From Thermoplasmata archaeon (GTDB lineage: Archaea > Thermoplasmatota > Thermoplasmata > UBA10834): a DNA stretch of 64,000 nt. The translations under genes were made by a program, and so were the position numbers. The stretch lies in contig JAEHCM010000002.1 of the NCBI GenBank assembly GCA_020696365.1, positions 18,751-82,750 of the forward strand, given 5' to 3'. The notes beneath the pieces were generated by a model, which had not been told where the DNA came from, made no database searches, and saw only the letters and a program-made list of their open reading frames with translations. Positions 2,041 to 57,077 of this stretch are shown here, in pieces; position 1 is the first letter of the stretch, and each line of letters opens with the position of its first letter.

Positions 2041-5261
<3,221 letters not shown>

Positions 5262-28139: not shown

Positions 28140-28169
28140 CGAGCTAGACATCCTTTTTCTGATTTCAAT
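28140..28169 (-). repeat. 30-nt boundary repeat, variant 2 (minus orientation): ATTGAAATCAGAAAAAGGATGTCTAGCTCG
   Basis: 28/30 identical to 53137-53166 on the opposite strand. It overlaps the TGA stop of ORF 28165..28428 and sits at the GC-rich/AT-richer transition. Confidence 0.8.
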
Positions 28170-28428
28170 AATACGGGGAATCGTCTCCTTCTCCCTTGTC
28201 CTTCCGCTTCAATTTCCTTGTAAGCGAGATAATAAGCGGTGCAATAAGAATCACAGTGCCAAACAGGACAATCTCAAAGAGAAATCCGCTGAGGTTCCTA
28301 TCGGACTCATTGGATCCGCCAATCATCTCAATGGCGGCAATCGCGAGTATCACGGCAGCAAGAACGAGCAGCCCAGGAACCCACTTTGTTATCTTCCTTC
28401 GGCCCTTCTTGCGAATCTTCTTCGCCAT
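28165..28428 (-). CDS. Small basic membrane protein (two TM segments)
   Basis: 87 aa: MAKKIRKKGRRK..., two hydrophobic helices, charged C-terminus. Confidence 0.5.
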   Translation of the reverse strand: MAKKIRKKGRRKITKWVPGLLVLAAVILAIAAIEMIGGSNESDRNLSGFLFEIVLFGTVILIAPLIISLTRKLKRKDKGEGDDSPYY

Positions 28429-28552
28429 TGTTCCTCAGTCGGTGACTGCGCATCAGAGGTTATGATTTTTCCCTGGTCTTCCGCCCCTATGGCCACTCCG
28501 ACTGTTGGCGGCATGCACGTCATCCCGCCATGCCAATATCGTCCTAAAAGTT

Positions 28553-28939: not shown

Positions 28940-29324
28940 CCAACCTACGAGGTCGGCGGAATAGTTAAAGCTTCGGGCCGGCCGACCTCAGACCCGAGTT
29001 GCTGGAACGATGTCCGTTCATAGAGCGCGCAGCGTCCGCCGCCGATGTTTGGCGGAGGGGAACACATATCGGGGGATCCCTCGCAGTCCACCAAGGGGAT
29101 GAGACCCCTCGAGATGTGTTTAGAGGCGACAGTTATTTGTGCTACCTGCGTATGCTCACCCGAAGCCCTTCCGGGCTCTGTCATACCATATCTGTGACAT
29201 GGTTCCCTCAAACACTAGCAAGGATGGGGTGACTCCTAATAGCTGCGAAAAGGGGTACGTTGAACTAAGAAGTTGACTACGTCGAAGAACGACTTTACGA
29301 ACTACAGATAATCTATGGTGAACT

Positions 29325-31250
29325 ATGTCATTCAGAAGAATTCTCTTAATTAAGCCTTCGGGGAGGCATGGGATAAGCTTTGCATTTGATATGATTCCCA
29401 CTGGGCTTGAGTACATTGCCGCGCATATTGAGGATGTTGTTGACGAGATCAATATTGTTGATTTGGAGATGGAGCCTAAGCCAATACAACAGGCTGCCGC
29501 TGGGCTCTTAGATTCCCTTAAGCCCGATCTAGTGGGCATATCTATGTCTTCAACAGAGCACACCGAAGGCCTTGAGCTTGCACAAATGGCCAAGAAACGA
29601 GGTGCAATGACGGTTCTGGGCGGATACCATCCTACGGCAATCCCAGATGAACTACTTTCACATCCTCAAGTAGATTATATAGTCCGGGGCGAGGGCGAAC
29701 AAAAATTCAAGGAACTAGTGATAAAAGGAGATGCAAAGGGCATCAAGGGAATCTCTTATAGAGATGGAAACGAAATAATTCATAATCCTGAGCGAGATTT
29801 CATCAAGGACTTAGATAGCCTATCGTTCCCTGCTCGGCATCTCCGGCGATATAAATATTACCTATCTATGGCGAGAGGCAAAGAGCATGATATAATTACA
29901 ACTTCTAGGGGCTGTTGGGGCAGATGTAGTTTCTGCTGTGAGCCTACAATGAGCAATAGCCATCAGCGTTATCGCTCCCCAGAGAATGTTATGGCGGAGA
30001 TATTGGAGATAGTCAAGTACCATGATGGAAAGCCGCTCAGCATTGAAATCACGGATCCTCATTTTATGGGCAAGCCTGAGCTGGTTGAGAGGCTTTGTGA
30101 TTTGTTAGCTAGCCATAAGCTGGACATAGGTTTCACTGCAAAAGTCCGGCCGGATTCTATGGCAAAGCATCCTGAAGTTGTTCGGAAAATGATAGCAGTT
30201 GGCATTGCCCACTTTGAAATGGGTATTGAGAGCCCAAACATGAGAGACCTTGGAAATACGTCCAAGGGAGTTAGCCCAGATATTCATATTACGGCTGTTA
30301 ACAATATTAAGAAATGGGGAGGGAGTGCAGGAGGAACATTTGTTATTGGCTTGCCAGACCAAACTGAAGAGGAAATACTGGAATTTCCAGCTTATGCCAA
30401 GAAACTTGGAATCGTGGGCAGTGCGTTTGGCATAGCAACACCATATCCCGGCACAAAATTCTACGAAGAACTGGATACAAAAGGGCTGATATTTGAGACT
30501 GATTGGAATAGATTCGATGAGATGCATTCTGTATATAACTTAAAGCATATCTCAAGTGAGCGAATCGAGGAGCTGGCATCGATTTGCATGGCCAAATTCT
30601 GGACGGTGGATACATTTTTTGAAAGGGAACGCTTGAGAATTATCAGGGAAAACAATATGTGGTCCATGGATGCAGAGGCACCTATCAAAGAAGGTGACAA
30701 ACAATTTATGGACAAAAGACTCACTTTAATGGAGTTCATCAGGCAGAGAAGGGTCGACATCAAATTCTCGCTATCCGCAGGCACTCAGCTTCAAGGAGAT
30801 AATTTCAACAAACATATGCAACAGTTTTTCGAGGTATCGCCAGATCCGTCAGTAAAGAGATATACTGAGAAAGTAGGAATTCATAATCTTATAAAGATGT
30901 CCAGATTCTTAGATTTACTTGGACCCCAGACGACTCAAATAACAATGAGATCGGACGGAAAACCTCTCGTGAGCTGGGTTATCAAGACCACAAAGAACAC
31001 GGTGGAACACATTCAGGTAATACCTGGGAAGATGGATGGTGCTACAATCGATTTTGACGCAGAACTAAATGATTTCAAAATCAATGGGCAACAGCGCTCG
31101 TCAAAAATCAACAACGTCAGACTTGTAGCTAAATTACTCGCGTCAAACAAAGGCATCAAGAACCAGCTGGGTTTGTGCCGGTTAATCGCCGCAGCTGGCA
31201 TTGAGTTTACCACGTATTTAGGAACGAAAAATAATGGGAATAGCGAGTGA
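29325..31250 (+). CDS. B12-binding-domain radical SAM protein with a ~200-aa C-terminal extension
   Basis: N-terminal cobalamin-binding-like Rossmann region (LVGISMSST...VLGGYHPT) and the radical SAM triad CWGRCSFCC. AT-richer codon usage than the backbone. Confidence 0.8.
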   Translation: MSFRRILLIKPSGRHGISFAFDMIPTGLEYIAAHIEDVVDEINIVDLEMEPKPIQQAAAGLLDSLKPDLVGISMSSTEHTEGLELAQMAKKRGAMTVLGGYHPTAIPDELLSHPQVDYIVRGEGEQKFKELVIKGDAKGIKGISYRDGNEIIHNPERDFIKDLDSLSFPARHLRRYKYYLSMARGKEHDIITTSRGCWGRCSFCCEPTMSNSHQRYRSPENVMAEILEIVKYHDGKPLSIEITDPHFMGKPELVERLCDLLASHKLDIGFTAKVRPDSMAKHPEVVRKMIAVGIAHFEMGIESPNMRDLGNTSKGVSPDIHITAVNNIKKWGGSAGGTFVIGLPDQTEEEILEFPAYAKKLGIVGSAFGIATPYPGTKFYEELDTKGLIFETDWNRFDEMHSVYNLKHISSERIEELASICMAKFWTVDTFFERERLRIIRENNMWSMDAEAPIKEGDKQFMDKRLTLMEFIRQRRVDIKFSLSAGTQLQGDNFNKHMQQFFEVSPDPSVKRYTEKVGIHNLIKMSRFLDLLGPQTTQITMRSDGKPLVSWVIKTTKNTVEHIQVIPGKMDGATIDFDAELNDFKINGQQRSSKINNVRLVAKLLASNKGIKNQLGLCRLIAAAGIEFTTYLGTKNNGNSE

Positions 31251-31307
31251 TCAACATTGTGCTAGTAGTTCCTAAAGTCGTTCGGATGACGATTGGAGAG
31301 AGAACAA

Positions 31308-32552
31308 ATGACGTTCAAGGATCTTAAGCTCATAGAGCCTCTTCTGGAGGCAATTGCTAAACAGGGTTATACTGCGCCAACACCAATACAGGAACAGGCA
31401 ATTCCTCATATTCTTCAAGGCAGGGATTTGATTGGGATCGCACAAACTGGCACCGGAAAGACTGCTGCATTTGTTCTTCCCCTATTGCAGTTGATGTCAC
31501 AATCACCTAGGCGTATTATCCCTAAGTCTCCTAGAACTCTAGTTGTTGCGCCAACTAGAGAATTAGCTGCGCAGATAAATGAAAGCTTTGCAACCTACGG
31601 CTCATTTATGAGATTCAGGCACACTGTAATGTTCGGCGGTGTCAGCCAAGGCGCTCAGGTTAGATCAATTTCCAAGGGTGTTGATGTCCTAGTCGCTACA
31701 CCTGGCAGATTATTGGACTTGATGAATCAGGGTTACGTGAATCTAAACCATTTAGAATTTCTTGTTCTCGATGAGGTTGATAGAATGCTTGACATGGGAT
31801 TCATAGTTGATGTCAAGAGAATCATTTCAAAATTGCCGACACACAGACAATCAATATTCCTTTCAGCAACAATGCCGCAAAAGATAAGCGAGCTTGCAAA
31901 AACATTGCTACGTCATCCTGTGCGCGTTGAAGTTGATCCTCAAGCAACCACCGTAAAACTAGTTCAACAAAAAGTTCTCTTTGTAGACGAAAGAAACAAG
32001 ATCACGATTCTATTGAAATTGCTGAAACATGAAGATCTGAAATGTGTACTGATATTTGCCAGAACAAAAAGAAGAGCCAATAACGTCGCCAAGCTGCTGA
32101 CCAATCAGGGTATTCGGGCTGAAGCCATACATGGCAACAAATCACAGAGTCAAAGAACAAGAGCATTAGACAATTTCAAATCAGGACATGCAAGAGTGCT
32201 GGTTGCAACTGACATTGCTGCAAGAGGCATTGACGTTGATGACATATCCCATGTAATAAACTATGATTTACCTGTTGACCAGATAGATAACTATGTTCAT
32301 AGAATTGGCCGTACCGCAAGAGCAGGAGCCAGGGGAACTGCATATTCCCTGTGCGCGAGCTATGAACGGAACGCCTTGAGAGAAATCGAAAGCCTCATAA
32401 AAATGAATATCAACGTAATGTCTCATTCATTCCATTCTAACACAGCAAGAGATGCTGTTGGCGCTGCTGCAAGACCGCCGCCAAAACAACAAAGAGGTCA
32501 GAGAAGGTCAAATATGAATCGACAGGATAAGAGACATTATCGATCGAAATAG
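31308..32552 (+). CDS. DEAD-box ATP-dependent RNA helicase (motif II is DEVD)
   Basis: Q-motif TPIQ, motif I AQTGTGKT, motif II DEVD, motif III SAT, motif VI HRIGRTAR, and a basic C-terminal tail. ATG at 31308 lies after GGAGAG. Confidence 0.9.
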   Translation: MTFKDLKLIEPLLEAIAKQGYTAPTPIQEQAIPHILQGRDLIGIAQTGTGKTAAFVLPLLQLMSQSPRRIIPKSPRTLVVAPTRELAAQINESFATYGSFMRFRHTVMFGGVSQGAQVRSISKGVDVLVATPGRLLDLMNQGYVNLNHLEFLVLDEVDRMLDMGFIVDVKRIISKLPTHRQSIFLSATMPQKISELAKTLLRHPVRVEVDPQATTVKLVQQKVLFVDERNKITILLKLLKHEDLKCVLIFARTKRRANNVAKLLTNQGIRAEAIHGNKSQSQRTRALDNFKSGHARVLVATDIAARGIDVDDISHVINYDLPVDQIDNYVHRIGRTARAGARGTAYSLCASYERNALREIESLIKMNINVMSHSFHSNTARDAVGAAARPPPKQQRGQRRSNMNRQDKRHYRSK

Positions 32553-32594
32553 AATGTCTAGAATTCTCGGTTCAGGAAAACCCCTTATCTCCTG

Positions 32595-32609
32595 CTGAAA
32601 AATGGATAG
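32595..32609 (+). repeat. Degenerate copy of the boundary repeat (CTGAAAAATGGATAG, preceded by ATCTCCTG as in copy D)
   Basis: ATCTCCTG-CTGAAAAATGGATAG compares with ATCTCCTGAGAAAAGGCCATAG at 53193-53215. It lies just after the DEAD-box gene stop. Confidence 0.3.
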
Positions 32610-32707
32610 AAAGTGGAGAGGGGGCACTCCCTAGGGACGTAATTCTGTTTCTGTTGCATTTCACTCCCTACGGTCTCTTCCGATGCGAGATAACGGCATA
32701 TTTATTC

Positions 32708-32718: not shown

Positions 32719-32790
32719 TGGACCGAAGGGGATTTGAACCCCTGACCTCCTGCTTGCAAAGCAGGCGATCTTCCACTGATCTATCGGCCC
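32719..32790 (-). tRNA. tRNA-Ala (anticodon UGC)
   Basis: The minus strand reads GGGCCGATAGATCAGTGGAAGATCGCCTGCTTTGCAAGCAGGAGGTCAGGGGTTCAAATCCCCTTCGGTCCA. It has a 7-bp acceptor stem with G3:U70, anticodon loop TTTGCAA, and no encoded CCA. Confidence 0.93.
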
Positions 32791-47104: not shown

Positions 47105-48070
47105 ATGAAGACGACCAAACCTGTAAGGCTGACAAAGGGCGCAACGATAGGAATAGCCTCACCTTCGAGCTTCTCCGAGCCTTTCGGACTCGGACAGGGA
47201 GTCAAGTACCTGCGTGAGCTCGGCTACAAGGTAGTGCTCGGAGAATGCACGCGTAACCTCACGCGGTCGGGCTTCACGGCCGGCAAGGACGAAGCGCGCG
47301 CGAAGGAACTCACGGGCATGTTCGCAAACGACAAGGTCGACGCGATCTTCGCCTCGAGAGGGGGCTACGGTGCGATGCGGGTGCTCCCTCATCTCGACTT
47401 CGGGGTGATCAAGGACAACCCGAAGATATTCATGGGCTACAGCGACATCACGACCCTTCACGTCGCGATACACCAGAGGACTGGCCTCGTGACGTTCCAC
47501 GGGCCCTCCATCGAAGGATATGCGGGCGACAATCCTGAGAAGGACTTGCCGACCGGGAAGCCGAACATAGATAGGGCGCTGAAGATGTTGAGCAAGGCAG
47601 AACCATGGGGGAACCTGGAGAACCCAGACAAGGGCATGCTGCTCAGAACCATCGTCCCGGGGAAAGCCAAGGGCAAGTTGTTCGGAGGGAACCTCTCGAT
47701 GATCACGCACACCTTCGGAACGGAGGATTCCATCGACACTAAGGGCAAGATCATGTTCTTCGAGGACGTGTACGTCTCGGAGTACGACGTAGAGAGGCTG
47801 CTCACCCACATGCATCTAGCGCGCAAGTTCGACGGGGTCGCGGGTATTGTGATGGGACAGTTCTCGAATTTCCCGAAGCGAGAGGACTCACAGCCTAGCC
47901 TGGAGGAGATTCTCCAGGACAGGATCGGCTGCCTCAAGAAGACGCCTTCGTTCACCGGCCTCTGCTGCGGCCACGGCGCCATGAAGCTCGTAATGCCAGA
48001 GGGTGTCAAGGCATCGATGAACGCGACCTCACCTGTACTGAGGATAGAGGAGAGCCCGCTCGTCAAGTAA
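47105..48070 (+). CDS. LD-carboxypeptidase (peptidase S66, MccF-like)
   Basis: IGIASPSS, GYSDITTLH (nucleophile Ser), and a C-terminal H/E region. Confidence 0.85.
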   Translation: MKTTKPVRLTKGATIGIASPSSFSEPFGLGQGVKYLRELGYKVVLGECTRNLTRSGFTAGKDEARAKELTGMFANDKVDAIFASRGGYGAMRVLPHLDFGVIKDNPKIFMGYSDITTLHVAIHQRTGLVTFHGPSIEGYAGDNPEKDLPTGKPNIDRALKMLSKAEPWGNLENPDKGMLLRTIVPGKAKGKLFGGNLSMITHTFGTEDSIDTKGKIMFFEDVYVSEYDVERLLTHMHLARKFDGVAGIVMGQFSNFPKREDSQPSLEEILQDRIGCLKKTPSFTGLCCGHGAMKLVMPEGVKASMNATSPVLRIEESPLVK

Positions 48071-48142
48071 CGACGCCGAGACGGTGCGTCCGAAAACACA
48101 CATGAAAGATGGGGCGAGCGACTCAGACGTCACATATTGCCT

Positions 48143-48164
48143 CGACAGAAACATATTTCTGTCG
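48143..48164. repeat. Perfect hairpin: 9-bp stem, 4-nt loop (CGACAGAAA CATA TTTCTGTCG)
   Basis: Read directly. It lies 73 nt after the LD-carboxypeptidase stop and about 100 nt before repeat copy A. Confidence 0.7.
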
Positions 48165-48265
48165 GCTACCTCCCTGTTTATGTCGACTGCCTGGTCCATC
48201 CAGTCTTTTTCTACCTCTTCTGTTTATTCCCGATGCCAAAGAACACCACTTAGAGTCTTGATTCC

Positions 48266-48288
48266 CTCAGAAAAGGCCTTAGGGGCGG
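48266..48288 (+). repeat. Cassette-boundary repeat, copy A (CTCAGAAAAGGCCTTAGGGGCGG)
   Basis: Matches the consensus CTGAGAAAAGGCCATAGGGGCGG. The upstream TCTTGATT is shared with copy D0. Confidence 0.75.
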
Positions 48289-48512
48289 GAAAATGAAGGA
48301 GGTTTGCGCCGAGCCGTCAATCCCTGCTGATTGACTCTTCCGCTTACTTTGCTGGCTGTCAACCGACAGTCTCCGAACGACCATCTCTTTTATTGTCCGA
48401 CCTTCCAGCGGGAGCGCCGACCAGATTGAACGTAAAACACGCAACCACATGAGCGAAAGAAGAAGAATGAACGAGAAAGGGTTTTTTCCTAGATCTTGTC
48501 GTCGCCCTCGGC

Positions 48513-50114
48513 TCATTCGGCATGTGGTTCTGGCAAGGGCTCCGGCGTCTTCGGCTTCCTGCCCATGACCATCATGACGATGAGAAGGACGATTACGACC
48601 ATCAGGAGTCCAATTACGGCGTACAACATCGAATCTAGGGAGTCCAGCTGAGACTGAAGGGCGTTCAACTCGCTCTCAAGCGTTGCAGTCTCCTCCAGGA
48701 GGGCCGCCTTTGTCGCATTGATATCGGAACTCATGGCATCCAACTGCGCTAGAACGTCGAACAGCTGTGCCTCTAGATCCGCGACATGCTCTTCCAATGT
48801 GGGAGCGTCAACAACGGTTAACAATAACTCCTGAACTGGCAGTTCCACCCCGCCTGAGGCCGTATTTGTGTACCATCGCACAACAACACTGTATGTCCCT
48901 GGCTCGGCGGTCACAGGCACCTCCAGCTCAATCGCAATGGTCGAGTAAGGTGCGGAAATCCATGCGTTCACTGGATTAATCGGAATCTCCTCCGGGGAGA
49001 CGAAATACGCATAGTAATCCGAGCTCGTTACCGTCCCCCTGTTGGCAAAATCGACGGTCAGCGTGACTGTGACACTATCGCCGGCACGCACCTCAGACTC
49101 GGAAAGCGATGAGGTCAGCTCCATCACAAGCAACGCGAGAACCTGAGGGGACACATCGGTGTTGTTGTTTCCTCCGAAGGCGTAAACCACCCCGTCCGCC
49201 GAAGCTGCTGCACCCAGGTATCTCACGCCAACTGGAATATCGTCCAGTTGGGTCCAATCACCTGTTGAGGGATTGAAACAGTATGACGTGTTGTATCCCC
49301 ACTCGACGTTGTTCGCGGAGTTAGCGCCGCCGATAACGTAGATCAAGCCATCGGGACCGACGACGGCAGCGTGGGCCGCCGTCGGAACGGGCATCGGGTC
49401 AATCGTGCTCCAGGAGTCGGAATAACTATAGTATGTGTACACTGAATCCACGGCTGCGTATCCAGGTTCCGAACCGCCGATGTAGTAGCAGGAGTAACCC
49501 ACCTGCAGAAGGGCTCCGGCAAATACGGCACCTGGGAGACTACCTCCGGCTGACCAGCTGTCGTCGACGATGTCGTATATCTGTGTGTTGGTGAGTGCGC
49601 CCTCTCCGCCGACAACGATTATCTCACCTGACTCCAAACTAGTGGCCTTGGCCTCCCATACGCCCAGAGGAACAGCAGCGCCAGAGGTCCAGATATCTGT
49701 TTCAGGGTCGTATATCTGCGTGACATTGTTCGTGGAGGCGCTTGAGTTCGCTCCGCCGAAAACGTAGATCCTCCCATCGTCTCCCAGGGCACCCGCGGCC
49801 CCTCTGACACCGTACGGCATCTGAGCCAGATCGGTCCATTCCCCCGTGCTCGGGTTGAATGATTCGACATTGTCGACCACCGGTCCGTAGTTGCCGCCTG
49901 ACATGCTTCTGACTCCACCCATGATGTAGACGATCCCATTATCGTCCTGCAGGACCACCGCCTGGGTCCGGTTGCCTCTCATTGGGTCCTCGACCTGCCA
50001 GTCCGAAGAAAACGCAGCACTCGCCGAAGGAGACATGGACGTCAGGGCACACAATACCAGCGAGACCACTATGCATAAGGCAAGTCCGCTGACAACTCTA
50101 TTCTTCACTATCAT
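48513..50114 (-). CDS. Kelch-repeat surface protein (signal/TM, beta-propeller, Ig-like region, coiled coil, C-terminal TM anchor)
   Basis: Repeated ...IYV(F/I)GG... / W(T/S) blades, a C-terminal LEAQL...LESELNALQSQL coiled coil, then a hydrophobic anchor. ATG at 50114 lies after GGAGTGG. Confidence 0.75.
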   Translation of the reverse strand: MIVKNRVVSGLALCIVVSLVLCALTSMSPSASAAFSSDWQVEDPMRGNRTQAVVLQDDNGIVYIMGGVRSMSGGNYGPVVDNVESFNPSTGEWTDLAQMPYGVRGAAGALGDDGRIYVFGGANSSASTNNVTQIYDPETDIWTSGAAVPLGVWEAKATSLESGEIIVVGGEGALTNTQIYDIVDDSWSAGGSLPGAVFAGALLQVGYSCYYIGGSEPGYAAVDSVYTYYSYSDSWSTIDPMPVPTAAHAAVVGPDGLIYVIGGANSANNVEWGYNTSYCFNPSTGDWTQLDDIPVGVRYLGAAASADGVVYAFGGNNNTDVSPQVLALLVMELTSSLSESEVRAGDSVTVTLTVDFANRGTVTSSDYYAYFVSPEEIPINPVNAWISAPYSTIAIELEVPVTAEPGTYSVVVRWYTNTASGGVELPVQELLLTVVDAPTLEEHVADLEAQLFDVLAQLDAMSSDINATKAALLEETATLESELNALQSQLDSLDSMLYAVIGLLMVVIVLLIVMMVMGRKPKTPEPLPEPHAE

Positions 50115-50346
50115 TTCAACCACTCCGATTGCACCTTTTCAGATGATCAACTGGCAAAGACAAAGCCCGCCGAATCGCCCAAGTTATCGACACGTGAGGA
50201 TAAAAGCCCTGTGGACTACCATGTGTCAAACGTTAAGGAGGATATAGGCAAGCAGGTTATCCCGCAACTCTTCATACGATCCAATAACCTGAGGTTTTTG
50301 CCTTCATGCCTATCTTTCTCACTTTGCCAAGCCAGATGATCCGCCG

Positions 50347-50703
50347 ATGGGTCAGGACGCTCAAGGCAGCATGGTCAAAAGAACCACAGCCAGTATTGAG
50401 ATAGTGTCCCAAGAACCAGAATTGGAGAAGCTAGCAAAGCTTTACGGAGGATTTTTCAAGGACTCAAAAGACATCCGCAACGGCGTCGTCCACACGGATG
50501 ATAGAATAGATGATGTGGTCAGAGATCTTGGCAACTTGTACGACTCCAAGTTCACCTTCGATGGCAAGGAACTTGGAATCGGCCCTGAGTTGGAACGAAT
50601 TCTGGAAGAGTTCTTTGAGGGGCTTCTGCAGGCATGTGAGTCTATTGCTGAGCGACAACGCAGAGAGGCAGTAGGCGGTCCCAGGAAATCTGAATCGCCG
50701 TGA
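50347..50703 (+). CDS. Hypothetical protein; its stop codon lies inside repeat copy B
   Basis: 118-aa ORF. Its TGA at 50701-50703 is the TGA of the repeat. Confidence 0.45.
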   Translation: MGQDAQGSMVKRTTASIEIVSQEPELEKLAKLYGGFFKDSKDIRNGVVHTDDRIDDVVRDLGNLYDSKFTFDGKELGIGPELERILEEFFEGLLQACESIAERQRREAVGGPRKSESP

Positions 50704-50722
50704 GAAAAGGCCATAGGGGCGA
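50700..50722 (+). repeat. Cassette-boundary repeat, copy B (GTGAGAAAAGGCCATAGGGGCGA)
   Basis: 21/23 match to the consensus. Confidence 0.85.
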
Positions 50723-50774
50723 ATCCTTGGCTATTCCCGCGTGGAAACGCGTCTGAGAGCGTGCAAAAGACCTT

Positions 50775-51536
50775 ATGCGGATAACAGGATTCCATCGAAA
50801 GGAGATGGTTCGAATGTATGGTGGAAACGTTATGACTTGCGAGAACTGCCGGTACTCGCGGGCCGCCCTTAGCGAAGTATGTCCTATGTGTCTGCGCTAC
50901 AGTGTACCTAGAACAGACAGATGGGCACCATCCAAACAATTCCGCACAAAGAGCGAAGAAGAGGCGGAAGCCGAAGAGGAAAGGCAACGTGTAGCCGACG
51001 AGGAGATACTGATGAAGGCGGGAGCTGGCTTCTTCGTGAGGGAGCGTGATGCCGTGTTGGGGTTGATCGAATCCTCACAGGAACGATATGGCGTCACAGT
51101 TGAATTCCTGCTAGAGGAAGCGCGAAAGCTCAATATCCCTGAAGGGCGCGTCAAGGTGCATCTGAAAGACCTAGCCTACAAAGCGAACATTTACCAACCT
51201 CGTTGTGGACGATGGAAGGTCACGGGATTCCCAGACTCTGAAGAAGTGGACTAGCATCATCTAGGACGCATTCTTTCGCCTAGATGGCCTTGCTTTCGGC
51301 CCTATGCGCCCTCGGAGGCATCTTACCATCACCGCGAGGAGATCGCCCCTTTCAAGAACCGAGACGGAAGGCCCTATCTTGAGCAGCATCATATAGTCTG
51401 GAGGTCGCGAAAAGGGGATGATCTTATCACGAATACTGCAGCCCTATGCCCCAACTGTCACAGAAGAATGCATGCGCTCGACCTGAAGCGAGATAGAGGC
51501 TTATTGCTGAGAAAGGCCTCTGAGAGAAGCCCTTAA
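50775..51536 (+). pseudogene. Zinc-ribbon / HNH-nuclease gene interrupted by an in-frame TAG (51252-51254)
   Basis: The 159-aa ORF (CENCRYSRAALSEVCPMC...) ends at TAG. The same frame continues as ...APFKNRDGRPYLEQHHIVWRSRKGDDLITNTAALCPNCHRRMH (HNH motif) to TAA at 51534-51536. Confidence 0.6.
51507..51526 (+). repeat. Degenerate cassette-boundary repeat, copy B' (CTGAGAAAGGCCTCTGAGAG)
   Basis: The first 13-14 nt match the consensus. It overlaps the 3' end of the HNH reading frame. Confidence 0.45.
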
Positions 51537-51571
51537 GCCATCGAAGGCGATGCGGAAGACGGGGAAATGGT

Positions 51572-51928
51572 ATGAGTTGTATCGAGGGTTTATTGAGTGA
51601 TTTGTGTAAGGATGTCGAACGGGAGCTCAAACCAGCAGCTTCTGGACTTCTGACGGGCTTTGTGGTCAAAAGCTTCTTGCCTCAAGACTGGATATTCAAA
51701 ACTGAACAAGAGTCTGTCACATTCCATGTGACGAAGTCCGGGTCAGCCACTTCCAAGGCCGGCGAATCAAGAAACCCTGATGTTGTTGTCGAATGGAACC
51801 ATGATTCTTTGGCAACAGTGCTTCGGACGCGGTCCAGTGAGGGCATTTCTCGCCCGCCAAGAGTGAGGATTCTGACGGCAAAAGGTCAGACTGGATACAA
51901 CCAACTTCGTAAGCGCATTGGCATTTGA
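51572..51928 (+). CDS. Hypothetical protein; its stop codon lies inside repeat copy C
   Basis: 118-aa ORF. Its TGA at 51926-51928 is the TGA of the repeat. Confidence 0.45.
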   Translation: MSCIEGLLSDLCKDVERELKPAASGLLTGFVVKSFLPQDWIFKTEQESVTFHVTKSGSATSKAGESRNPDVVVEWNHDSLATVLRTRSSEGISRPPRVRILTAKGQTGYNQLRKRIGI

Positions 51929-51947
51929 GAAAAGGCCATAGGAGCGG
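51925..51947 (+). repeat. Cassette-boundary repeat, copy C (TTGAGAAAAGGCCATAGGAGCGG)
   Basis: 21/23 match to the consensus. Confidence 0.85.
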
Positions 51948-51997
51948 ACCACCAAAGAAAGTCATATAAGCACTCAACAAGGATTCTGCATCAGAGG

Positions 51998-52081
51998 ATG
52001 GCAATGAAGTGTCCAGAGTGCGGAGGAGCCCCCCCTGATCCCCTCAGGGATATATCGAAAAGAGGGATGGGGATGCCCTGA
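51998..52081 (+). pseudogene. 27-codon zinc-ribbon gene fragment (MAMKCPECGG...), ending in a motif-like sequence
   Basis: Only the first CxxC of a ribbon is present. The 3' end, TCGAAAAGAGGGATGGGGATGCC (52055-52077), resembles repeat copy G. Confidence 0.35.
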
Positions 52082-52555
52082 CACTTCTCTTGTTTGGGGA
52101 TGAGGGGGAGCTTGCTAGTTTCCAGATACTACGTTCCTCTTGCCGTTGTCGATTTACACTCTGCAAGAAAACCTGGAGAATGCATAGCGGTTGGAAACCT
52201 TAGGTAGATGCGAGCATTGCGGCATGAGACTCTGAGGTTGCATGCCAAAAGGAAATGAACGGGTTTAGCTCCGGTTTTCCAGTGGCCCTCAAAGACGCGA
52301 TAGACGAGGCAACCGTCTCAAAACCTTTCACGATCGAATTATCCATGACCACCGCAGTGGGTTGCTCCCCCATGCCTCCCTTTTCATGAACCCGCCTTAA
52401 GCCACCATCTGTAGGTACCGTCTTATCGTGTAGCAGGAGCACAAGGTTGTACGACGAAGCCCGTGGCGTGTATTGCACTGAGTCAAGAACGTGATTCTTC
52501 TCTGTCTCCTATTTGGTGGAGATCTCTTGCGCACTTGTTCTTGTGAAAGGAGGAA

Positions 52556-52945
52556 ATGAAAATGGAAAAAGAGTTTAGCGTGAAGTTGGCGAACAAGCCC
52601 GGAGAGCTCGCGCGGGTAGCGGAGGTTCTGCAGAAGGATGGCGTAAACATACGCTCAATCGCGACAGAGCCTAACGCCGAGGTCGTGAGAATCGTCACGT
52701 CCGATCCCGAGAAGAGCCGGCGAAGCTTCAACCAATCGAACATGCAGTTCTCCGAGAGGAACCTGCTTGTGGCCAAGCTCGAGGACAAGCCTGGGGAGCT
52801 CGCCCGAATCTCGGCAGAGCTCGCCAAGGAAGGCATCAATATCAATGCCGCCTACATGCTCGACAAGGACGCAAATCGTGTGCATGTGGCGCTAGCCGTC
52901 AGCGACGAGGACAAGGCAAAGACCATCCTAAAGTGTTGTGATTAG
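52556..52945 (+). CDS. Tandem ACT-domain protein
   Basis: Two copies of the (K/D)KPGELAR(V/I)...L(A)K(D/E)G(V/I)NI pattern. ATG lies after AGGAGG. Confidence 0.7.
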   Translation: MKMEKEFSVKLANKPGELARVAEVLQKDGVNIRSIATEPNAEVVRIVTSDPEKSRRSFNQSNMQFSERNLLVAKLEDKPGELARISAELAKEGININAAYMLDKDANRVHVALAVSDEDKAKTILKCCD

Positions 52946-53136
52946 GACTAGTACCTTGCCGACAAAACCCCTTACCTTTTCATTCCCTCATGGATGTTAT
53001 GATGAAGTGGCCCCCGCCAATATCGTGGTTCATCAAGACTACGCGGAGCTCGTTCCCATCGAGAGCGGAACCAGCGTTTCGGTCATAGTCGCAATCTGAT
53101 GGACCATTGCATTTCTGGACGCGATTTCAACTCTTG

Positions 53137-53166
53137 ATTGAAGTCAGAAAAAGGATGTCTGGCTCG
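53137..53166 (+). repeat. 30-nt boundary repeat, variant 2, copy D0 (ATTGAAGTCAGAAAAAGGATGTCTGGCTCG)
   Basis: 28/30 identical to the reverse complement of 28140-28169. It lies 35 nt upstream of copy D. Confidence 0.8.
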
Positions 53167-53200
53167 GAGAGGAGTCAAAACCCCTCTGCCGCACAATCTC

Positions 53201-53223
53201 CTGAGAAAAGGCCATAGGGGCGG
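53201..53223 (+). repeat. Cassette-boundary repeat, copy D (CTGAGAAAAGGCCATAGGGGCGG)
   Basis: Equals the consensus. Confidence 0.88.
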
Positions 53224-53332
53224 AAGGGCGACAAGGAGATGGAAGCCGCCGAAGGCCCTCCGCCCGTCAGCCTCGGCTCCTCAGGAAGGCTCTTAAAGAC
53301 TCGGAATCATCCACACCAAGGTCTCTGATGGA

Positions 53333-54145
53333 ATGGAAATGACGAATTTGCCTAAGGGAGTGGCATCATCTAACGCAGGCGTAATTGCCAAAAGGCTAGG
53401 AACAGTCTCTGGCGACAGAATATTGGATGTTGCCACAGGCAAAGGAACATTCATTGACACTTTGATGAAGACTCTGAAAGATTATGATTCCTTTGTTGGG
53501 ATAGATTATTGCCCTTCCGCTACTTCAAGAGAGGAGATGGAATCTGCAAAGAAACGGTTTGAAGGAATGCCCGTGCGTTTCTTTGAGATGAACGCCGAGA
53601 CCTTGAAGTTCGAAGACGGATCTTTTGACACAGTCTGTATATCCCATTCTCTGCATCACCTCGCAAATATAGACATGGTGCTAACCGAGATGAAGCGAGT
53701 GCTGAGAACCTGCGGCAATTTCATACTTCAAGAGGCTTACTGCGATGGAGACCAAACCGAGGCGCAGAAATCAGAGAGACTTCAGCATGAGTGGGGAGCA
53801 CGGATCGACTCTCTGCTTGGCATCACCCACAATAAGACCTTCACCAAACAGAGAATCATGAACATCGTGAACAGTCTGGAGCTGAGGGAGCTAGAGGTTT
53901 ATGATTCTACACATTCCGTCGACTGCCTGTTCTGTGAGAGGAAACATGAGTGCGAAGACCCGAAGAATCAGGCAACATACCACGATTCGATCAAGGAGAT
54001 TGATGATGCATTCAGAGAGATAGAGAACTACCCCAATCTGGAAATTCGGAATCACCTGAAGGACGAGGGGGAGAGAATCAAGGAGACGATAGCCAAGTCT
54101 GGGGCGGCGTCAGCATCATTTCTATTAATCATTGGCAAGACTTAG
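53333..54145 (+). CDS. Class I SAM-dependent methyltransferase
   Basis: Motif I ILDVATGKGTF, post-I VGIDY, FDTVCISHSLHHL. AT-richer composition. Confidence 0.8.
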   Translation: MEMTNLPKGVASSNAGVIAKRLGTVSGDRILDVATGKGTFIDTLMKTLKDYDSFVGIDYCPSATSREEMESAKKRFEGMPVRFFEMNAETLKFEDGSFDTVCISHSLHHLANIDMVLTEMKRVLRTCGNFILQEAYCDGDQTEAQKSERLQHEWGARIDSLLGITHNKTFTKQRIMNIVNSLELRELEVYDSTHSVDCLFCERKHECEDPKNQATYHDSIKEIDDAFREIENYPNLEIRNHLKDEGERIKETIAKSGAASASFLLIIGKT

Positions 54146-54214
54146 CCTGTTTCTCAGAATGACAGTGCTGGTGATGGAGGTTTATCCGGATTCATGGCCC
54201 GACGGCTGCAGATT

Positions 54215-54237
54215 CTGAGAAGAGGCCATAGGGGCGG
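54215..54237 (+). repeat. Cassette-boundary repeat, copy E (CTGAGAAGAGGCCATAGGGGCGG)
   Basis: 22/23 match to the consensus. Confidence 0.88.
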
Positions 54238-54444
54238 ACGGAACAAGGCACACGCCGCCCTGCAGGATTCTTTGAGTACTCGCTCCGACTTGGCGCACTT
54301 CATATTCGTGCTCCAGGAGGACCGTCAGCCCCGCGAACCCGCCGATGGTCAGGCAGGGTCGGTCGCGGACAACAGTGAAATAGTCTCAAGACAATCCCAG
54401 ACAGGCTCCGGGGCGATCCCCCTCGGACCTTGGGAGGAGATGTC

Positions 54445-54984
54445 ATGGGAGAATCCGTATCTGACCCGGCCGTCGCCGGAGGGCAACAGCAGCCAGACGC
54501 GCCTCCAACGAGACAGTGCGTCTCGTGTGGACGCAGGATAGACTGGAATTCAAACGCCTGCCCGTACTGCGGGCACGACTACAGAATGGCGCAGCCTGGA
54601 CAGGCTGCCCCGCAGAAGGAGAGAAGCATGCTGCCGGTGATCGGCGGCGTGCTCATACTCATCGCGGGACTCGCAGCCCTGGGCATGGGCGTGGCGTTCA
54701 TGGCGTTCGACGCTCAGGACTTCGAGGACTGGGTGGACCTCGACGAGTTGGATGTGTCGCTCAGCGAGCTGGATGACATACTCTTCACGTGCGGCGCCGT
54801 GGTGATGGTCTTCGGTGTGATCGGGGTCCTCGGGGGCGTGTTCGCGATAGTCCGGAAGCACTTCAGCCTCGCAGTCGTGGGCGGGATATTCTCGATTCTC
54901 GGTCTGGGTTTCGTGGTCGGCGCCGTGGTCGGTCTCATCGGTCTGATCCTGGTCTTTGTCGGCAGGAGCTCCTTCAACGAGTGA
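54445..54984 (+). CDS. Zinc-ribbon membrane protein (N-terminal CxxC-x11-CxxC, four TM segments)
   Basis: CVSCGRRIDWNSNACPYCG followed by hydrophobic helices. ATG at 54445 lies after GGGAGGAG. Confidence 0.65.
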   Translation: MGESVSDPAVAGGQQQPDAPPTRQCVSCGRRIDWNSNACPYCGHDYRMAQPGQAAPQKERSMLPVIGGVLILIAGLAALGMGVAFMAFDAQDFEDWVDLDELDVSLSELDDILFTCGAVVMVFGVIGVLGGVFAIVRKHFSLAVVGGIFSILGLGFVVGAVVGLIGLILVFVGRSSFNE

Positions 54985-55206
54985 GCGCCTGCGGTGAGTG
55001 CGCCGAATAAGGGTTGATACACGCCAGTGTATCGCCCTCAAACCATAATCATCGCAATTTTCTATAATTTCCTTCACCATCTCAATAGGTCGGCTAGTGC
55101 GTCTTGTAGCGGGTCTGCGCACTACTGAGGTGATGGGGTGGGAGCAACGGGTAGTACTCCGTCGACTACTCGGAGCTGTGTCTCGTGCGGCCGCACATCA
55201 AATCAG

Positions 55207-55229
55207 CTGAGAAAAGGCCATAGGGGCGA
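55207..55229 (+). repeat. Cassette-boundary repeat, copy F (CTGAGAAAAGGCCATAGGGGCGA)
   Basis: 22/23 match to the consensus. Confidence 0.88.
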
Positions 55230-55266
55230 AAGGGCTGAGGAACCACTCTGTCTGGGGGAAAGCCTT

Positions 55267-56100
55267 ATGGCTCTACGCTTCGTTTGGGCAACAGGGAAAT
55301 CGACATTGACGCTAGTACAGGCCTGCATTGCACATGAAGGAGAGCGGGTCATTCTAATTGGGGACAGACTTGTCACGAGGAACATAGGTACCGACGTTCC
55401 GTCCTATGAATATGAATCGCACAATCGAAAGGTTCTCCTCAAAGGAATGGTTGGAATCGGGTTCGCAGGAGATGTGGTCCTGATAGACCAGTTCGTAACT
55501 GAATTATCGGGCAAGAGGGACTACAACAGCATTGTTGACAGCATCGCAGAGTCCATTAAGAAGGAAGACGAGAAAGCCACTGAAAGGTATGTGAGGTCTC
55601 GCACGGGCCTATCCGCGAAGCAGTTCTTTGAGAGGACAGACGCCAAGATACCACCGGACTATCTGGTTGACGAGGTCTACGAGGGCATAGAGGAGCGCGT
55701 CGACATTGGCGCCCTCGTTGCGGGTTATGACAGGAACGGGAATGCCAAACTCACTGTCGCCGACGCCGATGGAGAAGTTCTTAACTTCACGAACCTCGGG
55801 AATGTCTCGATTGGCAGTGGTAGCACTCTGTCTGGCATATACTTCGACCAAAACCGCTACGATCCGCGCATGAACGAGAATGAGGCTCTATTGTTTGCCT
55901 TCGAGGCGAAGAAGTGGGCGGAGGCGCACACTGGTGTTGGCCATTCAACCGACATAATAATCATCAAGAAGAGGGGCAAGTCAAAAGAAATACTGGAAGA
56001 GTCCCCCCAGATGGAGAAGATGAACCGAGTCTATGAGGAAGAGCGCCGGAAGCAGAAAGAGGTCAGGAAAAGGCTCATTAGGAAGATGTTCCGAGAATAG
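55267..56100 (+). CDS. Proteasome-subunit-like (Ntn-hydrolase fold) protein with a basic C-terminal tail
   Basis: STLTLVQA...GERVILIGDRLVT, IGFAGDV, ALVAGYDRNGNAKL, SIGSGS resemble the proteasome beta/HslV-like block order. ATG at 55267 (MALRFVW) chosen, because the upstream part of the ORF runs through the repeat. Confidence 0.55.
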   Translation: MALRFVWATGKSTLTLVQACIAHEGERVILIGDRLVTRNIGTDVPSYEYESHNRKVLLKGMVGIGFAGDVVLIDQFVTELSGKRDYNSIVDSIAESIKKEDEKATERYVRSRTGLSAKQFFERTDAKIPPDYLVDEVYEGIEERVDIGALVAGYDRNGNAKLTVADADGEVLNFTNLGNVSIGSGSTLSGIYFDQNRYDPRMNENEALLFAFEAKKWAEAHTGVGHSTDIIIIKKRGKSKEILEESPQMEKMNRVYEEERRKQKEVRKRLIRKMFRE

Positions 56101-56182
56101 GACGGGGTGTGTCGTGATGCACTCCGTATAAAACAGCACTTGCCTTCATCTGCATTGTCTTATATGCAGTGATCGTCTTCCC

Positions 56183-56203
56183 CGGAAAAGGCTATGGGGG
56201 CGG
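56183..56203 (+). repeat. Degenerate cassette-boundary repeat, copy G (CGGAAAAGGCTATGGGGGCGG)
   Basis: Same orientation. It is the last copy before the composition returns to GC-rich. Confidence 0.55.
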
Positions 56204-56489
56204 TACGATAGCTCTTGGTCGGTTGTGGGAACCCCCGCAAAAAATGACATGCAACAAGTATGGCGAGTAATTCCGAGTGTCGAAATCCTAGCAGCGGCAA
56301 TACAACGAGGGAGATGATCATGATTGCGAGCACTACCAACGATCCCGCTATGCCGAACCTATCTCCGATGATTATCATTCTTGCTTGAGGGACCTTGGGA
56401 ATCTGGGGAAAGGCCATCATCATACAATGTGAGAAAGCCGCATAAGTATACTCGAATGGGACTCCGGTCTGCAGTGGGCCGTCCTGCCA

Positions 56490-57077
56490 CTAGAAGAGCT
56501 GCTCGAACATGATCAGGGCGCCGAAGGCCAGGAGCGCAATCACGGACATTCGGACAGCGCGGAGCCACGGGCGTCCGCGGCCCAAGGTTCCCAGGTAATA
56601 TCCCGCGCCGAAGATGATTCCGATACCAAGGATGCTCGAAAGCATCGCTGCCGCACCGAAATCACCAATGACCCCCGCGTCAAACAACAGAAGTGGAGTC
56701 CCCATGACGATGGCAACGAAGACCGGCGCAAAGAAGTTGACTGTAGCCACCGCATAGGCGGAGACTCGTGCCTTCCGCTCGATTTCAGTGTCCTCCATGG
56801 ACGACAGCATCGCCCGCTCGACCTTCCGCATCTCAATCTCAGTCTCGACATGCTCGGCTTCATAGACACTCACAGCAGTGGAAATCCCGATGGCAAGGCA
56901 GGCGGCAAACACGGTTCCAACGGCGATCTCCGGGTTTGCATCGGGAATGAATGCTGACGCTGCAAGAATCCCAAGTACCACGAAGGTTGAGTCGAACAGA
57001 GTGTTAATGAAGTAGCGACGCAACAGTTCTTGTGGCTCGACGGGCAATACTCTCCGCAGAAAATCTGCCAGACTCAT
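56490..57077 (-). CDS. VIT1/CCC1-family membrane protein (paralog of 9458..10063)
   Basis: RRYFINTLFDSTFVVLGILAASAF and the same TM layout. Confidence 0.65.
   Translation of the reverse strand: MSLADFLRRVLPVEPQELLRRYFINTLFDSTFVVLGILAASAFIPDANPEIAVGTVFAACLAIGISTAVSVYEAEHVETEIEMRKVERAMLSSMEDTEIERKARVSAYAVATVNFFAPVFVAIVMGTPLLLFDAGVIGDFGAAAMLSSILGIGIIFGAGYYLGTLGRGRPWLRAVRMSVIALLAFGALIMFEQLF

Follow-up and report, generated by a model that had tools for sequence, protein, structure and literature searches.

Between positions 48266 and 56203 of a 64,000-nt stretch from a Thermoplasmata archaeon (contig JAEHCM010000002.1; the whole stretch is referred to here as the window), a short sequence recurs in a single orientation between genes of unrelated function. 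The locus raises the question of whether this repeat delimits exchangeable gene cassettes, as proposed in a first-pass annotation made from the sequence alone, and, if so, how it relates to the sites used by integrons and other mobile systems. Our comparisons lead us to consider that the motif (yyCT GAGAAAAGGCCATAGGGGCG GAA, 23-27 nt) probably serves a gene-cassette system, confined to one lineage of Thermoplasmata, as its crossover or attachment site. The system works like an integron cassette array, yet it is not an integron.

A Direct Repeat Punctuates the Window

A search with the pattern TGAGAARAGGCCATAGGRGCG, allowing up to three mismatches, retrieved six copies from the window, all on the + strand, at positions 48267, 50701, 51926, 53202, 54216, and 55208, and none from 100 shuffled controls (0/100); the repeat noticed initially is therefore real, with six near-perfect copies at 48.27-55.23 kb and zero expected. 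The degenerate copy reported at 56183-56203 is also genuine, matching the 17-nt core with two mismatches. Another reported copy, at 51507-51526, is related to the motif, as claimed, but it is a truncated version (CTGAGAAAGGCC) without ATAGGGGCG, after which a second element (GAGAGAAGCCCTTAAG..GCGATG) follows. As was also noted initially, the TGA within the motif is the stop codon of the open reading frames (ORFs) 50347..50703 and 51572..51928; paralogy of these two 118-aa ORFs was rejected, because they are mutually unrelated. The array stretch is indeed more AT-rich than its surroundings, with a GC fraction of 0.51-0.55 vs. 0.58-0.61 in much of the backbone. Additionally, Pfam bore out the annotations of the cargo as Kelch, ACT, methyltransferase, and zinc-ribbon proteins, with a weak match for the proteasome-like one (Table 1).

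The Motif Forms One-Orientation Arrays in a Single Archaeal Lineage

We scanned one genome per species for the exact pattern and extracted 8-kb blocks around the matches (hereafter genome loci), which yielded 90 stretches from about 17 species, represented by metagenome-assembled genomes (MAGs) of Thermoplasmata type and including three closed chromosomes. Metagenomes from the Joint Genome Institute (JGI) supplied 96 further stretches with the motif (metagenome loci); both sets overlap partly, since some JGI stretches are the same contigs as MAGs. No matches (0) were found in the viral contigs of IMG/VR, and a search of the accessible literature library with the motif string and related terms did not retrieve any matching paper. 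The motif is specific to one lineage of Thermoplasmata. It also occurs on two short contigs (JAEOUG01; L019 and L021) from a bin labeled Candidatus Thorarchaeota, which are more likely mis-binned Thermoplasmata sequences than the product of transfer between phyla; L019 contains the composite of element X, tRNA-Gly fragment, and motif described below, and L021 a serine recombinase ORF.

With up to three mismatches, the genome loci contain 273 copies, with the consensus yyCT-GAGAAAAGGCCATAGGGGCG-GAAnG. Conservation spans about 27 nt, and the flank alignment reveals none further out. The arrays are polar: the closed chromosome CP070736 carries 17 copies, all on the + strand, at 1,067,353-1,078,459, and CP070732 another 17, all on the - strand, at 1,627,181-1,639,422. 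There are also many arrays of 5-11 copies, as well as 34 singletons. The median spacing between copies is 571 nt (5th-95th percentile, 234-2004 nt), with approximately one ORF per interval. Neighboring copies (up to 3.5 kb apart) have the same orientation in 207 of 209 cases from the genome loci and in 134 of 135 from the metagenome loci, whereas neighboring ORFs, called heuristically with the longest ORF first, were co-oriented in only about 50-60% of the cases. In the closed chromosomes, motif copies occur on mixed strands relative to position. A check proposed with the cassette interpretation was whether the motif is spread genome-wide after core genes; instead, we found it concentrated in arrays of one orientation.

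Array DNA Is Modular and Its Cassettes Are Shuffled

All-against-all BLAST comparisons between different genomes produced 901 alignment ends, of which 272 (30%) fall within -60 to +80 nt of a motif, vs. 5.7% expected from sequence length. These ends peak at offset 0 when the alignment lies on the downstream side of the motif and at +20 to +23 when it lies on the upstream side. Motif-to-motif segments of the same length recur across genomes (208 nt in four genomes, 411-414 nt in another group of four, and pairs of 441/441, 934/934, and 1588/1589 nt), and the similarity between homologous cassettes begins at the preceding motif and stops at the following motif. The neighborhood, however, is not maintained, since none of the pairs of homologous internal cassettes from different genomes (0/53) had a homologous upstream or downstream neighbor. 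The shared cassettes show a median identity of 83.6% (maximum 96.6%), compared to 72.8% for non-array DNA of the same genome pairs, indicating that they were exchanged after the divergence of the species. Duplicates within a genome were limited to diverged paralogous cassettes, 63-87% identical, and none of them was recent.

The same shuffling is evident among closely related strains, because homology to the window breaks at 50701, 48269, 50721, and 54216 in strain contigs that are 93-98% identical to it (L093, L099/L149, L188, and L141). Upstream of exactly position 50701, contig L093 (98% identical downstream) bears no relation to the window, whereas L114 (99%) is colinear with it through the 50700 junction; both arrangements therefore exist in nature. 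Homology to L099/L149 (ca. 96%) starts at 48269, preceded by different cassettes, and that to L141 (93%) extends from 54216, also with a different sequence upstream. The block 48269-50721, containing the Kelch gene and a 118-aa ORF, is common to L099/L149 and L188 at 96% identity but with both neighbors different, being surrounded there by two other cassettes upstream and four others downstream. Logan contig L092 is identical (100%) to positions 53204-54247, that is, to exactly one cassette from motif to motif. Likewise, 52289-52977, within cassette 3, recurs at 90-96% identity in L074, L108, and L159, and 55210-56178 matches L012 (1869-901) at 91%, from the motif to just before the next one and in another array context. 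Gene content between repeats is thus shuffled, both because cassettes do not keep their neighbors and because near-identical strains differ; together with the breakpoints at the motif edges and the polarity of the arrays, this upholds the initial interpretation of a cassette array with a non-canonical site.

Arrays Are Anchored Downstream of tRNA Genes

Within the genome loci, the motif lies downstream of 18 of the 22 tRNA genes, co-oriented with 17 of these 18 and at 5-160 nt from the tRNA 3′ end in 11 cases; for none of the 22 was it found upstream within 1.7 kb. In the metagenome loci it is downstream of 13 out of 13 tRNAs, 11 of them co-oriented, a count that includes one tRNA call (L155) that looks false. 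When orthologous tRNA loci are compared, homology spans the tRNA and its upstream region and ends at or before the motif, with unrelated DNA beyond.

A dispersed repeat that we designated element X (TTGATTGAAATCAGAAAAAGGATGTCTGGCTCG) occurs 27 times and, in at least 12 loci, is part of a composite formed by element X, a displaced tRNA 3′ fragment, a spacer of ca. 11 nt, and the motif. The displaced fragment corresponds to the T-arm and acceptor strand of tRNA-Gly or tRNA-Ala and is located 11-12 nt upstream of motif copies; the window holds one of these composites at 53138-53223. The composite resembles a right-end junction, as would be expected of small elements that inserted themselves in tRNA genes. 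Locus L010 contains, in order, a real tRNA-Gly gene, an insert of about 370 nt ending in element X, a displaced tRNA-Gly 3′ fragment, and an array led by the motif, which is a classical footprint of integration into a tRNA gene and indicates that integrase-type events occurred at array anchors. However, a test for tRNA direct repeats identified displaced tRNA-Gly or tRNA-Ala fragments in only a subset of cases, plus one tRNA-Val repeat in L016. Since most junctions carry only the motif, this layer of tRNA integration is separate from the shuffling at the level of the motif. The possibility that the motif derives from a tRNA was rejected, because it is not tRNA-like.

Element X is present in L063, just after tRNA-Ala, as well as in L001, L007, L010, L019, L054, L069, L072, L089, L160, L161, L188, and L190, and its center (AGAAAAAGG) weakly resembles the 5′ half of the motif. 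Many tRNA genes of the lineage have a short conserved box with the sequence ACTGGC(T/C), which is also the 3′ end of element X, about 6-10 nt past their 3′ ends, as in L016, L026, L030, L058, L059, L076, and L087, and its reverse complement, AGCCAG, occupies the position of the box behind the tRNA in L054, L066, and L081.

The Site Differs from Known Recombination Sites

Integron attC sites contain an R′′ box (RYYYAAC) and an R′ box (GTTRRRY) within an imperfect inverted repeat of 57-141 nt, which folds into a hairpin and is conserved in structure. Neither box is present in the 29-nt consensus of the motif. We looked up to 150 nt to each side of 276 copies for an arm complementary to the motif, and the best complementarity equaled that of shuffled controls; RNA folding of 120 nt around each copy produced z-scores of -1.7 to +0.6, with a pairing register that varies between copies. 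The absence of attC features remarked upon initially thus extends to any partner arm or significant fold, and a canonical attC identity was rejected for a site that has no boxes or palindrome and is conserved by sequence rather than structure. Dyad symmetry was also sought with arms of 9-11 nt and spacers of 4-9 nt, obtaining at most 4 complementary positions out of 10-11, and a dif-type site was consequently discarded. Miniature inverted-repeat transposable elements (MITEs) and insertion sequences (ISs) are units of fixed length that terminate in inverted repeats and are bordered by target-site duplications; such an end was rejected for the motif because the window has no inverted copy of the motif and only ca. 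27 nt are conserved.

Proposed Mechanism

If the motif is a crossover site, a cassette consists of one motif plus 0.2-2.5 kb of DNA. It usually has one ORF, co-oriented with the motif in about 70% of the cases and often preceded by what appears to be a short promoter region of its own. When two direct copies recombine, the intervening DNA would be excised as a putative circle with one copy, which could then recombine with any chromosomal copy, leading to its re-insertion and to the regeneration of direct repeats. Repeated cycles of excision and re-insertion would build one-orientation arrays, typically anchored just downstream of tRNA genes, with the content that differs between species and strains. 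Recombination at the motif would explain the polarity of the arrays whatever the orientation of their genes, the single motif at each junction, the identical ends of the cassettes in different genomes, and their free reassortment. We consider a sequence-specific recombinase, encoded outside the arrays and working in trans, to be the most likely catalyst, given that the 23-nt core is constant over about 17 species, whose other shared DNA is only ca. 73% identical. Homologous recombination through the 23-27-bp repeat is a possible fallback.

Several observations weigh against this model. We searched for recombinases using phmmer, with XerD, Cre, and a resolvase as queries against six-frame ORFs, and with Pfam scans of the array flanks. 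phmmer did not find an integron integrase in 1.1 Mb of array DNA (loci only), nor any recombinase in the 447 kb of metagenome loci or in the window, where their absence had already been noticed, and only two Phage_integrase ORFs appeared in ca. 680 kb of genome loci, roughly the background rate. The asymmetry of the site argues against the classical chemistry of tyrosine or serine recombinases, which operates on a symmetric core. Rare core variants are linked to neither of the neighboring cassettes, and the crossover point cannot be mapped from them. No circular or empty-site junction was seen in the contigs and loci compared. The 5′ half of the motif, GAGAAAA, resembles a transcription factor B recognition element (BRE), and ORF starts are enriched 35-80 nt downstream, so that a regulatory role, alone or additional, is a possibility. 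Lastly, the ORF calls in the loci are crude.

Two integrase genes were located in the vicinity of motif copies. A 216-aa tyrosine recombinase with only the catalytic domain is encoded beside an AAA+ ATPase, in AT-rich DNA (L022, 1-1984), 860 nt upstream of a 10-copy array that opens with a degenerate motif and from which the gene is divergent; and a 382-aa integrase is encoded beside an HEPN/AbiV gene, 3 kb from a motif copy (L025, 3150-5124). Both look like parts of separate integrated elements, which may be unrelated to the arrays; alternatively, they may point to the enzyme. In CP070736, the large array is flanked by genes for a clostripain, a deaminase, a winged-helix protein, and a ferredoxin, as identified with Pfam.

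A broader claim, which we advance tentatively and which falls somewhat short of being probable, is that these arrays represent a previously undescribed archaeal platform for gene capture and shuffling, using a short asymmetric site of fixed sequence and machinery unlike IntI or the classical tyrosine and serine recombinases, and operating genome-wide from tRNA-anchored arrays across a whole lineage of sediment Thermoplasmata. Such machinery could be a recombinase directed by a sequence-specific or RNA-guided component, or else a repeat-duplicating integrase. We regard the system as an integron-like cassette platform with a different site, and the chance that its machinery makes it categorically new is substantial.

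Cassette Anatomy and a Possible Regulatory Role

Among the 202 motif-bounded intervals, a sense ORF dominates in 114 and an antisense ORF in 49, with 39 being ambiguous. Sense ORFs are tightly packed, beginning about 55 nt past the motif start and stopping about 24 nt short of the next motif; of those ending within that motif, 19 do so at its TAG and 6 at its TGA. Antisense ORFs keep ca. 120 nt on their own 5′ side. The enrichment of ATG starts (ORFs of at least 60 aa) at 35-80 nt past the motif is confined to the sense direction, and around 120 of the 273 copies have a start within 100 nt, vs. around 45 in the antisense control. Nineteen copies are directly trailed by a second element, gaAGaaG-CCCTTAAG-N9-GCGATTc, which is similar to the BRE/TATA promoters of the organism, is situated 21-36 nt upstream of an ATG (e.g., L038, 2391-2425), and precedes a sense ORF in 18 of the 19 cases. 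Another subset of copies displays GGCGGAAnGGCATAnC...GAGGGGAATGGCGATGAAGTG, leading into zinc-ribbon (MKCPxCG) proteins.

The cargo comprises mostly small membrane, zinc-ribbon, and secreted proteins, and 644 of the 762 ORF clusters are singletons. The commonest family at array edges includes large secreted proteins of clostripain (Peptidase_C11)/CARDB-like type, with 21 ORFs in 10 genomes (e.g., L075, 86-1102, and CP070732, 1,874,683-1,875,840, equivalent to L029, 2683-3840); the gene from CP070732 stands alone between two divergent arrays.

The main alternative to a crossover site, clearly less probable but worth serious consideration, is that the motif is a cis-regulatory element, either a BRE-like promoter with an odd substitute for the TATA box or an operator or upstream activating site for a lineage-specific factor controlling accessory genes, with shuffling as a by-product of homologous recombination among its many identical copies. 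The archaeal core promoter consists of a purine-rich BRE directly upstream of an A/T-rich 8-bp TATA box, centered about 26 nt before the transcription start. The GAGAAAA half of the motif matches the BRE of the tRNA-Ala promoter from the window (ACGAGAAAC-GTATATAA) and fits the A-rich BREs of other window genes, and the geometry of the downstream ATGs is compatible with a core promoter. Moreover, 114 of the 163 decidable cassettes have a sense ORF starting ca. 30 nt after the motif, and the earliest ATGs, at +31 to +36, would fit leaderless mRNAs if the motif occupied the BRE/TATA position. Nevertheless, the TATA position reads GGCCATAG, unlike the real promoters from the window, with their TTAA/TATA boxes, and the separate BRE/TATA-like element that trails 19 copies makes the motif redundant as a core promoter. 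Orientation within arrays is also 99% uniform even though about 30% of the cassettes contain an ORF on the opposite strand with some 120 nt of 5′ region of its own, and singleton copies precede a sense gene in only 13 of 21 cases. Genes following conserved tRNA-proximal copies differ between genomes, indicating that there is no stable regulon, and the near-perfect conservation of 23 nt exceeds that of usual operators.

Other Explanations

It is unlikely that the arrays grew in a way similar to CRISPR (clustered regularly interspaced short palindromic repeats) adaptation or to casposase activity, by which an integrase making staggered cuts that flank the motif would insert foreign DNA and gap repair would then duplicate the motif; the repeat would be a target-site duplication and would not be borne by the cassette. 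The length and strict single orientation of the repeat, which resemble those of CRISPR repeats, agree with this mechanism, as do the asymmetry of the site, the extent of cassette homology, from about +21 after one motif to about -2 before the next, and the fact that casposons of Thermoplasmatota insert beside tRNA genes. Core variants that travel with neither neighbor would also be expected, but purifying selection on the core explains the lack of linkage equally well. Against it, a given cassette recurs with identical ends in many genomes, which implies a precise excision that the mechanism does not provide. Also, no terminal inverted repeats were found, and no Cas1-like Pfam match occurred among the scanned ORFs, in loci that were not subjected to a Cas1-directed screen.

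Still less likely is a role at the RNA level, as a terminator, processing site, or protein-binding site in the 3′ untranslated region (3′-UTR) of tRNA and accessory genes. The first-pass annotation offered a 3′-UTR RNA element as one option and viewed the motif as a gene-3′-end element, not a promoter. The upstream genes at the ends of the window array are all co-oriented with the motif, but the enrichment of ORF starts downstream of it means that a promoter role may also apply. The position of the motif after tRNA genes, in the same orientation, and the 39 of 273 copies whose own TGA or TAG stops a long open frame also favor this role. Conversely, the 3′-UTR option is not supported, because the folds are not significant, the flanks lack a complementary partner, and the upstream gene is co-oriented at only about 65% of the intergenic copies. 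The motif also lacks a U-tract, and T-tracts belonging to the tRNA genes themselves precede it; besides, shuffling would be left unexplained. Rfam, at gathering score, detected only rRNA, intron, and tRNAs in the window, and Rfam 15 did not produce any match on 48000-56600 at E-values of up to 1. Two other candidates were dropped by eye, a C/D-box or kink-turn small RNA, for lack of a conserved upstream box, and a T7-like promoter, because no single-subunit RNA polymerase is among the annotated ORFs.

A canonical integron-derived array with merely divergent attC sites would account for the common orientation of the sites, intervals with roughly one ORF each, their variable content, and arrays with no integrase beside them, but is already contradicted by the lack of R′′/R′ boxes and of a palindrome or partner arm within 150 nt, by a conservation limited to 23-27 nt and residing in the sequence, and by the absence of IntI-like genes from the loci and the window.

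Comparison with Known Systems

A previous study reported archaeal integrons that have canonical attC sites and IntI (Ghaly et al., 2022; PMC9668308). The arrays described here share with them, and with clusters of attC sites lacking integron-integrases (CALINs), a tandem arrangement of short, mostly co-oriented ORFs with one site each, all sites being in one orientation, as well as a functionally unrelated and variable cargo, the recurrence of cassettes with other neighbors, and the existence of many arrays without an adjacent integrase. In an integron, the head of the array harbors the gene for the tyrosine recombinase IntI and the attI site, both of which are absent in CALINs. By contrast, the motif is an asymmetric 23-27-nt site, conserved base for base and devoid of R′/R′′ boxes, neither IntI nor attI was found in the loci, many cassettes appear to carry their own promoter, and the arrays start beside tRNA genes.

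Archaeal islands and integrative elements anchored at tRNA genes use tyrosine integrases and att sites in tRNA 3′ ends (PMC8371274). They coincide with our arrays in having variable DNA just downstream of a tRNA gene, co-oriented with it, and displaced tRNA 3′ ends are found inside the arrays; unlike them, the junction repeat is not derived from tRNA and is identical after many different tRNAs, and the units are only 0.2-2.5 kb long, lack an integrase, and number up to 17 per array.

The dif-type site, of 28 bp, is formed by two 11-nt inverted arms around a 6-nt spacer (PMC8371274). In Xer/dif modules, such as IMEX (integrative mobile elements exploiting Xer) and the pdif modules of Acinetobacter plasmids, gene modules are likewise bounded by a short (ca. 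28-bp) conserved site and are moved by a recombinase encoded elsewhere, analogous to the enzyme acting in trans that we propose here; the motif, however, has no inverted-arm symmetry. Whereas pdif sites alternate in orientation, all copies of the motif are direct.

CRISPR arrays have short uniform spacers (ca. 25-50 nt) and cas genes nearby. The arrays of the motif are comparable to them in repeat length, strict single orientation, and near identity of the repeats within and between arrays, but differ in having variable, protein-coding intervals of 230-2500 nt, and a CRISPR array was discarded because the 5th-95th percentile interval range (234-2004 nt) and the coding content are incompatible with it. 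No cas genes occur among the annotated array flanks, which were not searched systematically for them.

To our knowledge, no system other than integrons is well understood so far among those that could stockpile and reshuffle cassettes of single genes, and all known integrons rely on folded attC sites and IntI. Here, an archaeal lineage from sediments shows integron-like arrays, with swapping among strains and exchange among species, through a site that has none of the sequence or structural characteristics of attC. If a dedicated enzyme exists, it would recognize an asymmetric site of 23-27 bp, which would mean that genes flow by a new route in these uncultured archaea of sediments and might also provide a new tool for site-specific DNA insertion. 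If there is no such enzyme, a short portable repeat would by itself turn homologous recombination into an integron-like system. In either case, the motif is a simple sequence handle for retrieving the accessory-gene pool of these archaea from metagenomes.

Other Features of the Window

The coordinates of the array and of related features are collected in Table 1.

Table 1. Motif copies, cassettes, and associated elements in the 64,000-nt window.
Feature	Position	Strand	Basis
Partial motif copy (GGAGTGGCCATAGGGGCGGAAG), outside the range first reported	28478-28500	-	
Motif copy 1 (CTCAGAAAAGGCCTTAGGGGCGG), array start	48266-48288	+	Pattern match
Cassette 1: Kelch-repeat surface protein (48513-50123, -) and 118-aa ORF (50347-50703, +)	48289-50699		Pfam Kelch
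Motif copy 2, TGA is stop of ORF 50347-50703	50700-50722	+	Pattern match
Cassette 2: 159-aa ORF (50775-51254), HNH nuclease pseudogene (ca. 51260-51536), 118-aa ORF (51572-51928)	50723-51924	+	
Truncated motif (CTGAGAAAGGCC), then GAGAGAAG-CCCTTAAG-N9-GCGATG, BRE/TATA-promoter-like	51507-51552	+	Same extension at 19 copies elsewhere
Motif copy 3, TGA is stop of ORF 51572-51928	51925-51947	+	Pattern match
Cassette 3: remnant zinc-ribbon ORF (ca. 52005-52082), ACT-domain protein (52556-52945)	51948-53137		
Element X (TTGAAGTCAGAAAAAGGATGTCTGGCTCG) and fragment like a tRNA T-arm/3′ acceptor strand, ending 5 nt before copy 4	53138-53195	+	
Motif copy 4	53201-53223	+	Pattern match
Cassette 4: S-adenosylmethionine-dependent methyltransferase (53333-54145)	53224-54214	+	Pfam
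Motif copy 5, GAAGAGG variant	54215-54237	+	Pattern match
Cassette 5: zinc-ribbon membrane protein (54430-54984)	54238-55206	+	Pfam
Motif copy 6	55207-55229	+	Pattern match
Cassette 6: proteasome/Ntn-like protein (55267-56100)	55230-56182	+	Weak Pfam match
Motif copy 7, degenerate (CGGAAAAGGCTATGGGGGCGG), distal array end	56183-56203	+	Two mismatches to 17-nt core

The HNH nuclease gene from cassette 2 is disrupted, as initially noted, being a pseudogene in the window and intact in the related strain L093. A 127-nt deletion at 51334-51349, a point where ca. 16 nt align to both sides of the gap, interrupts the gene both in the window and in L114; the additional 127 nt are retained in L093 (909-1035), L095 (365-491), and L096. 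The intact gene from L093 codes for ca. 130 aa, and its C-terminal end overlaps the truncated motif. We rejected a role of this nuclease as the homing enzyme of the motif because the gene occurs only in this species and is not recurrent. An exact-protein look-up of four proteins from the window found none on record.

The window is archaeal and contains a 23S rRNA gene with a group I intron, as well as two tRNA genes. The 23S rRNA gene (2041-5257) stands alone, with no 16S or 5S genes nearby within the window, and its intron spans 3992-4243 (Rfam RF00028, 68.6 bits). The partial motif copy on the - strand, overlooked in the first-pass annotation, is followed by an ORF for an 87-aa membrane protein (28165-28428, -) and by element X (ca. 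28140-28168, -). This copy is 4.2 kb downstream of a tRNA-Ala gene (32719-32790, -) and co-oriented with it. Between them there is a low-GC island (29000-32700; 0.43-0.45 vs. ca. 0.58 elsewhere), which adjoins the tRNA-Ala gene and codes for a B12-binding radical SAM protein (29325-31250) and a DEAD-box helicase (31293-32552), with the helicase part being 85-87% conserved in other loci. In a relative, L163, a copy of the motif is found 5 nt after the same tRNA-Ala gene, in place of the low-GC island.

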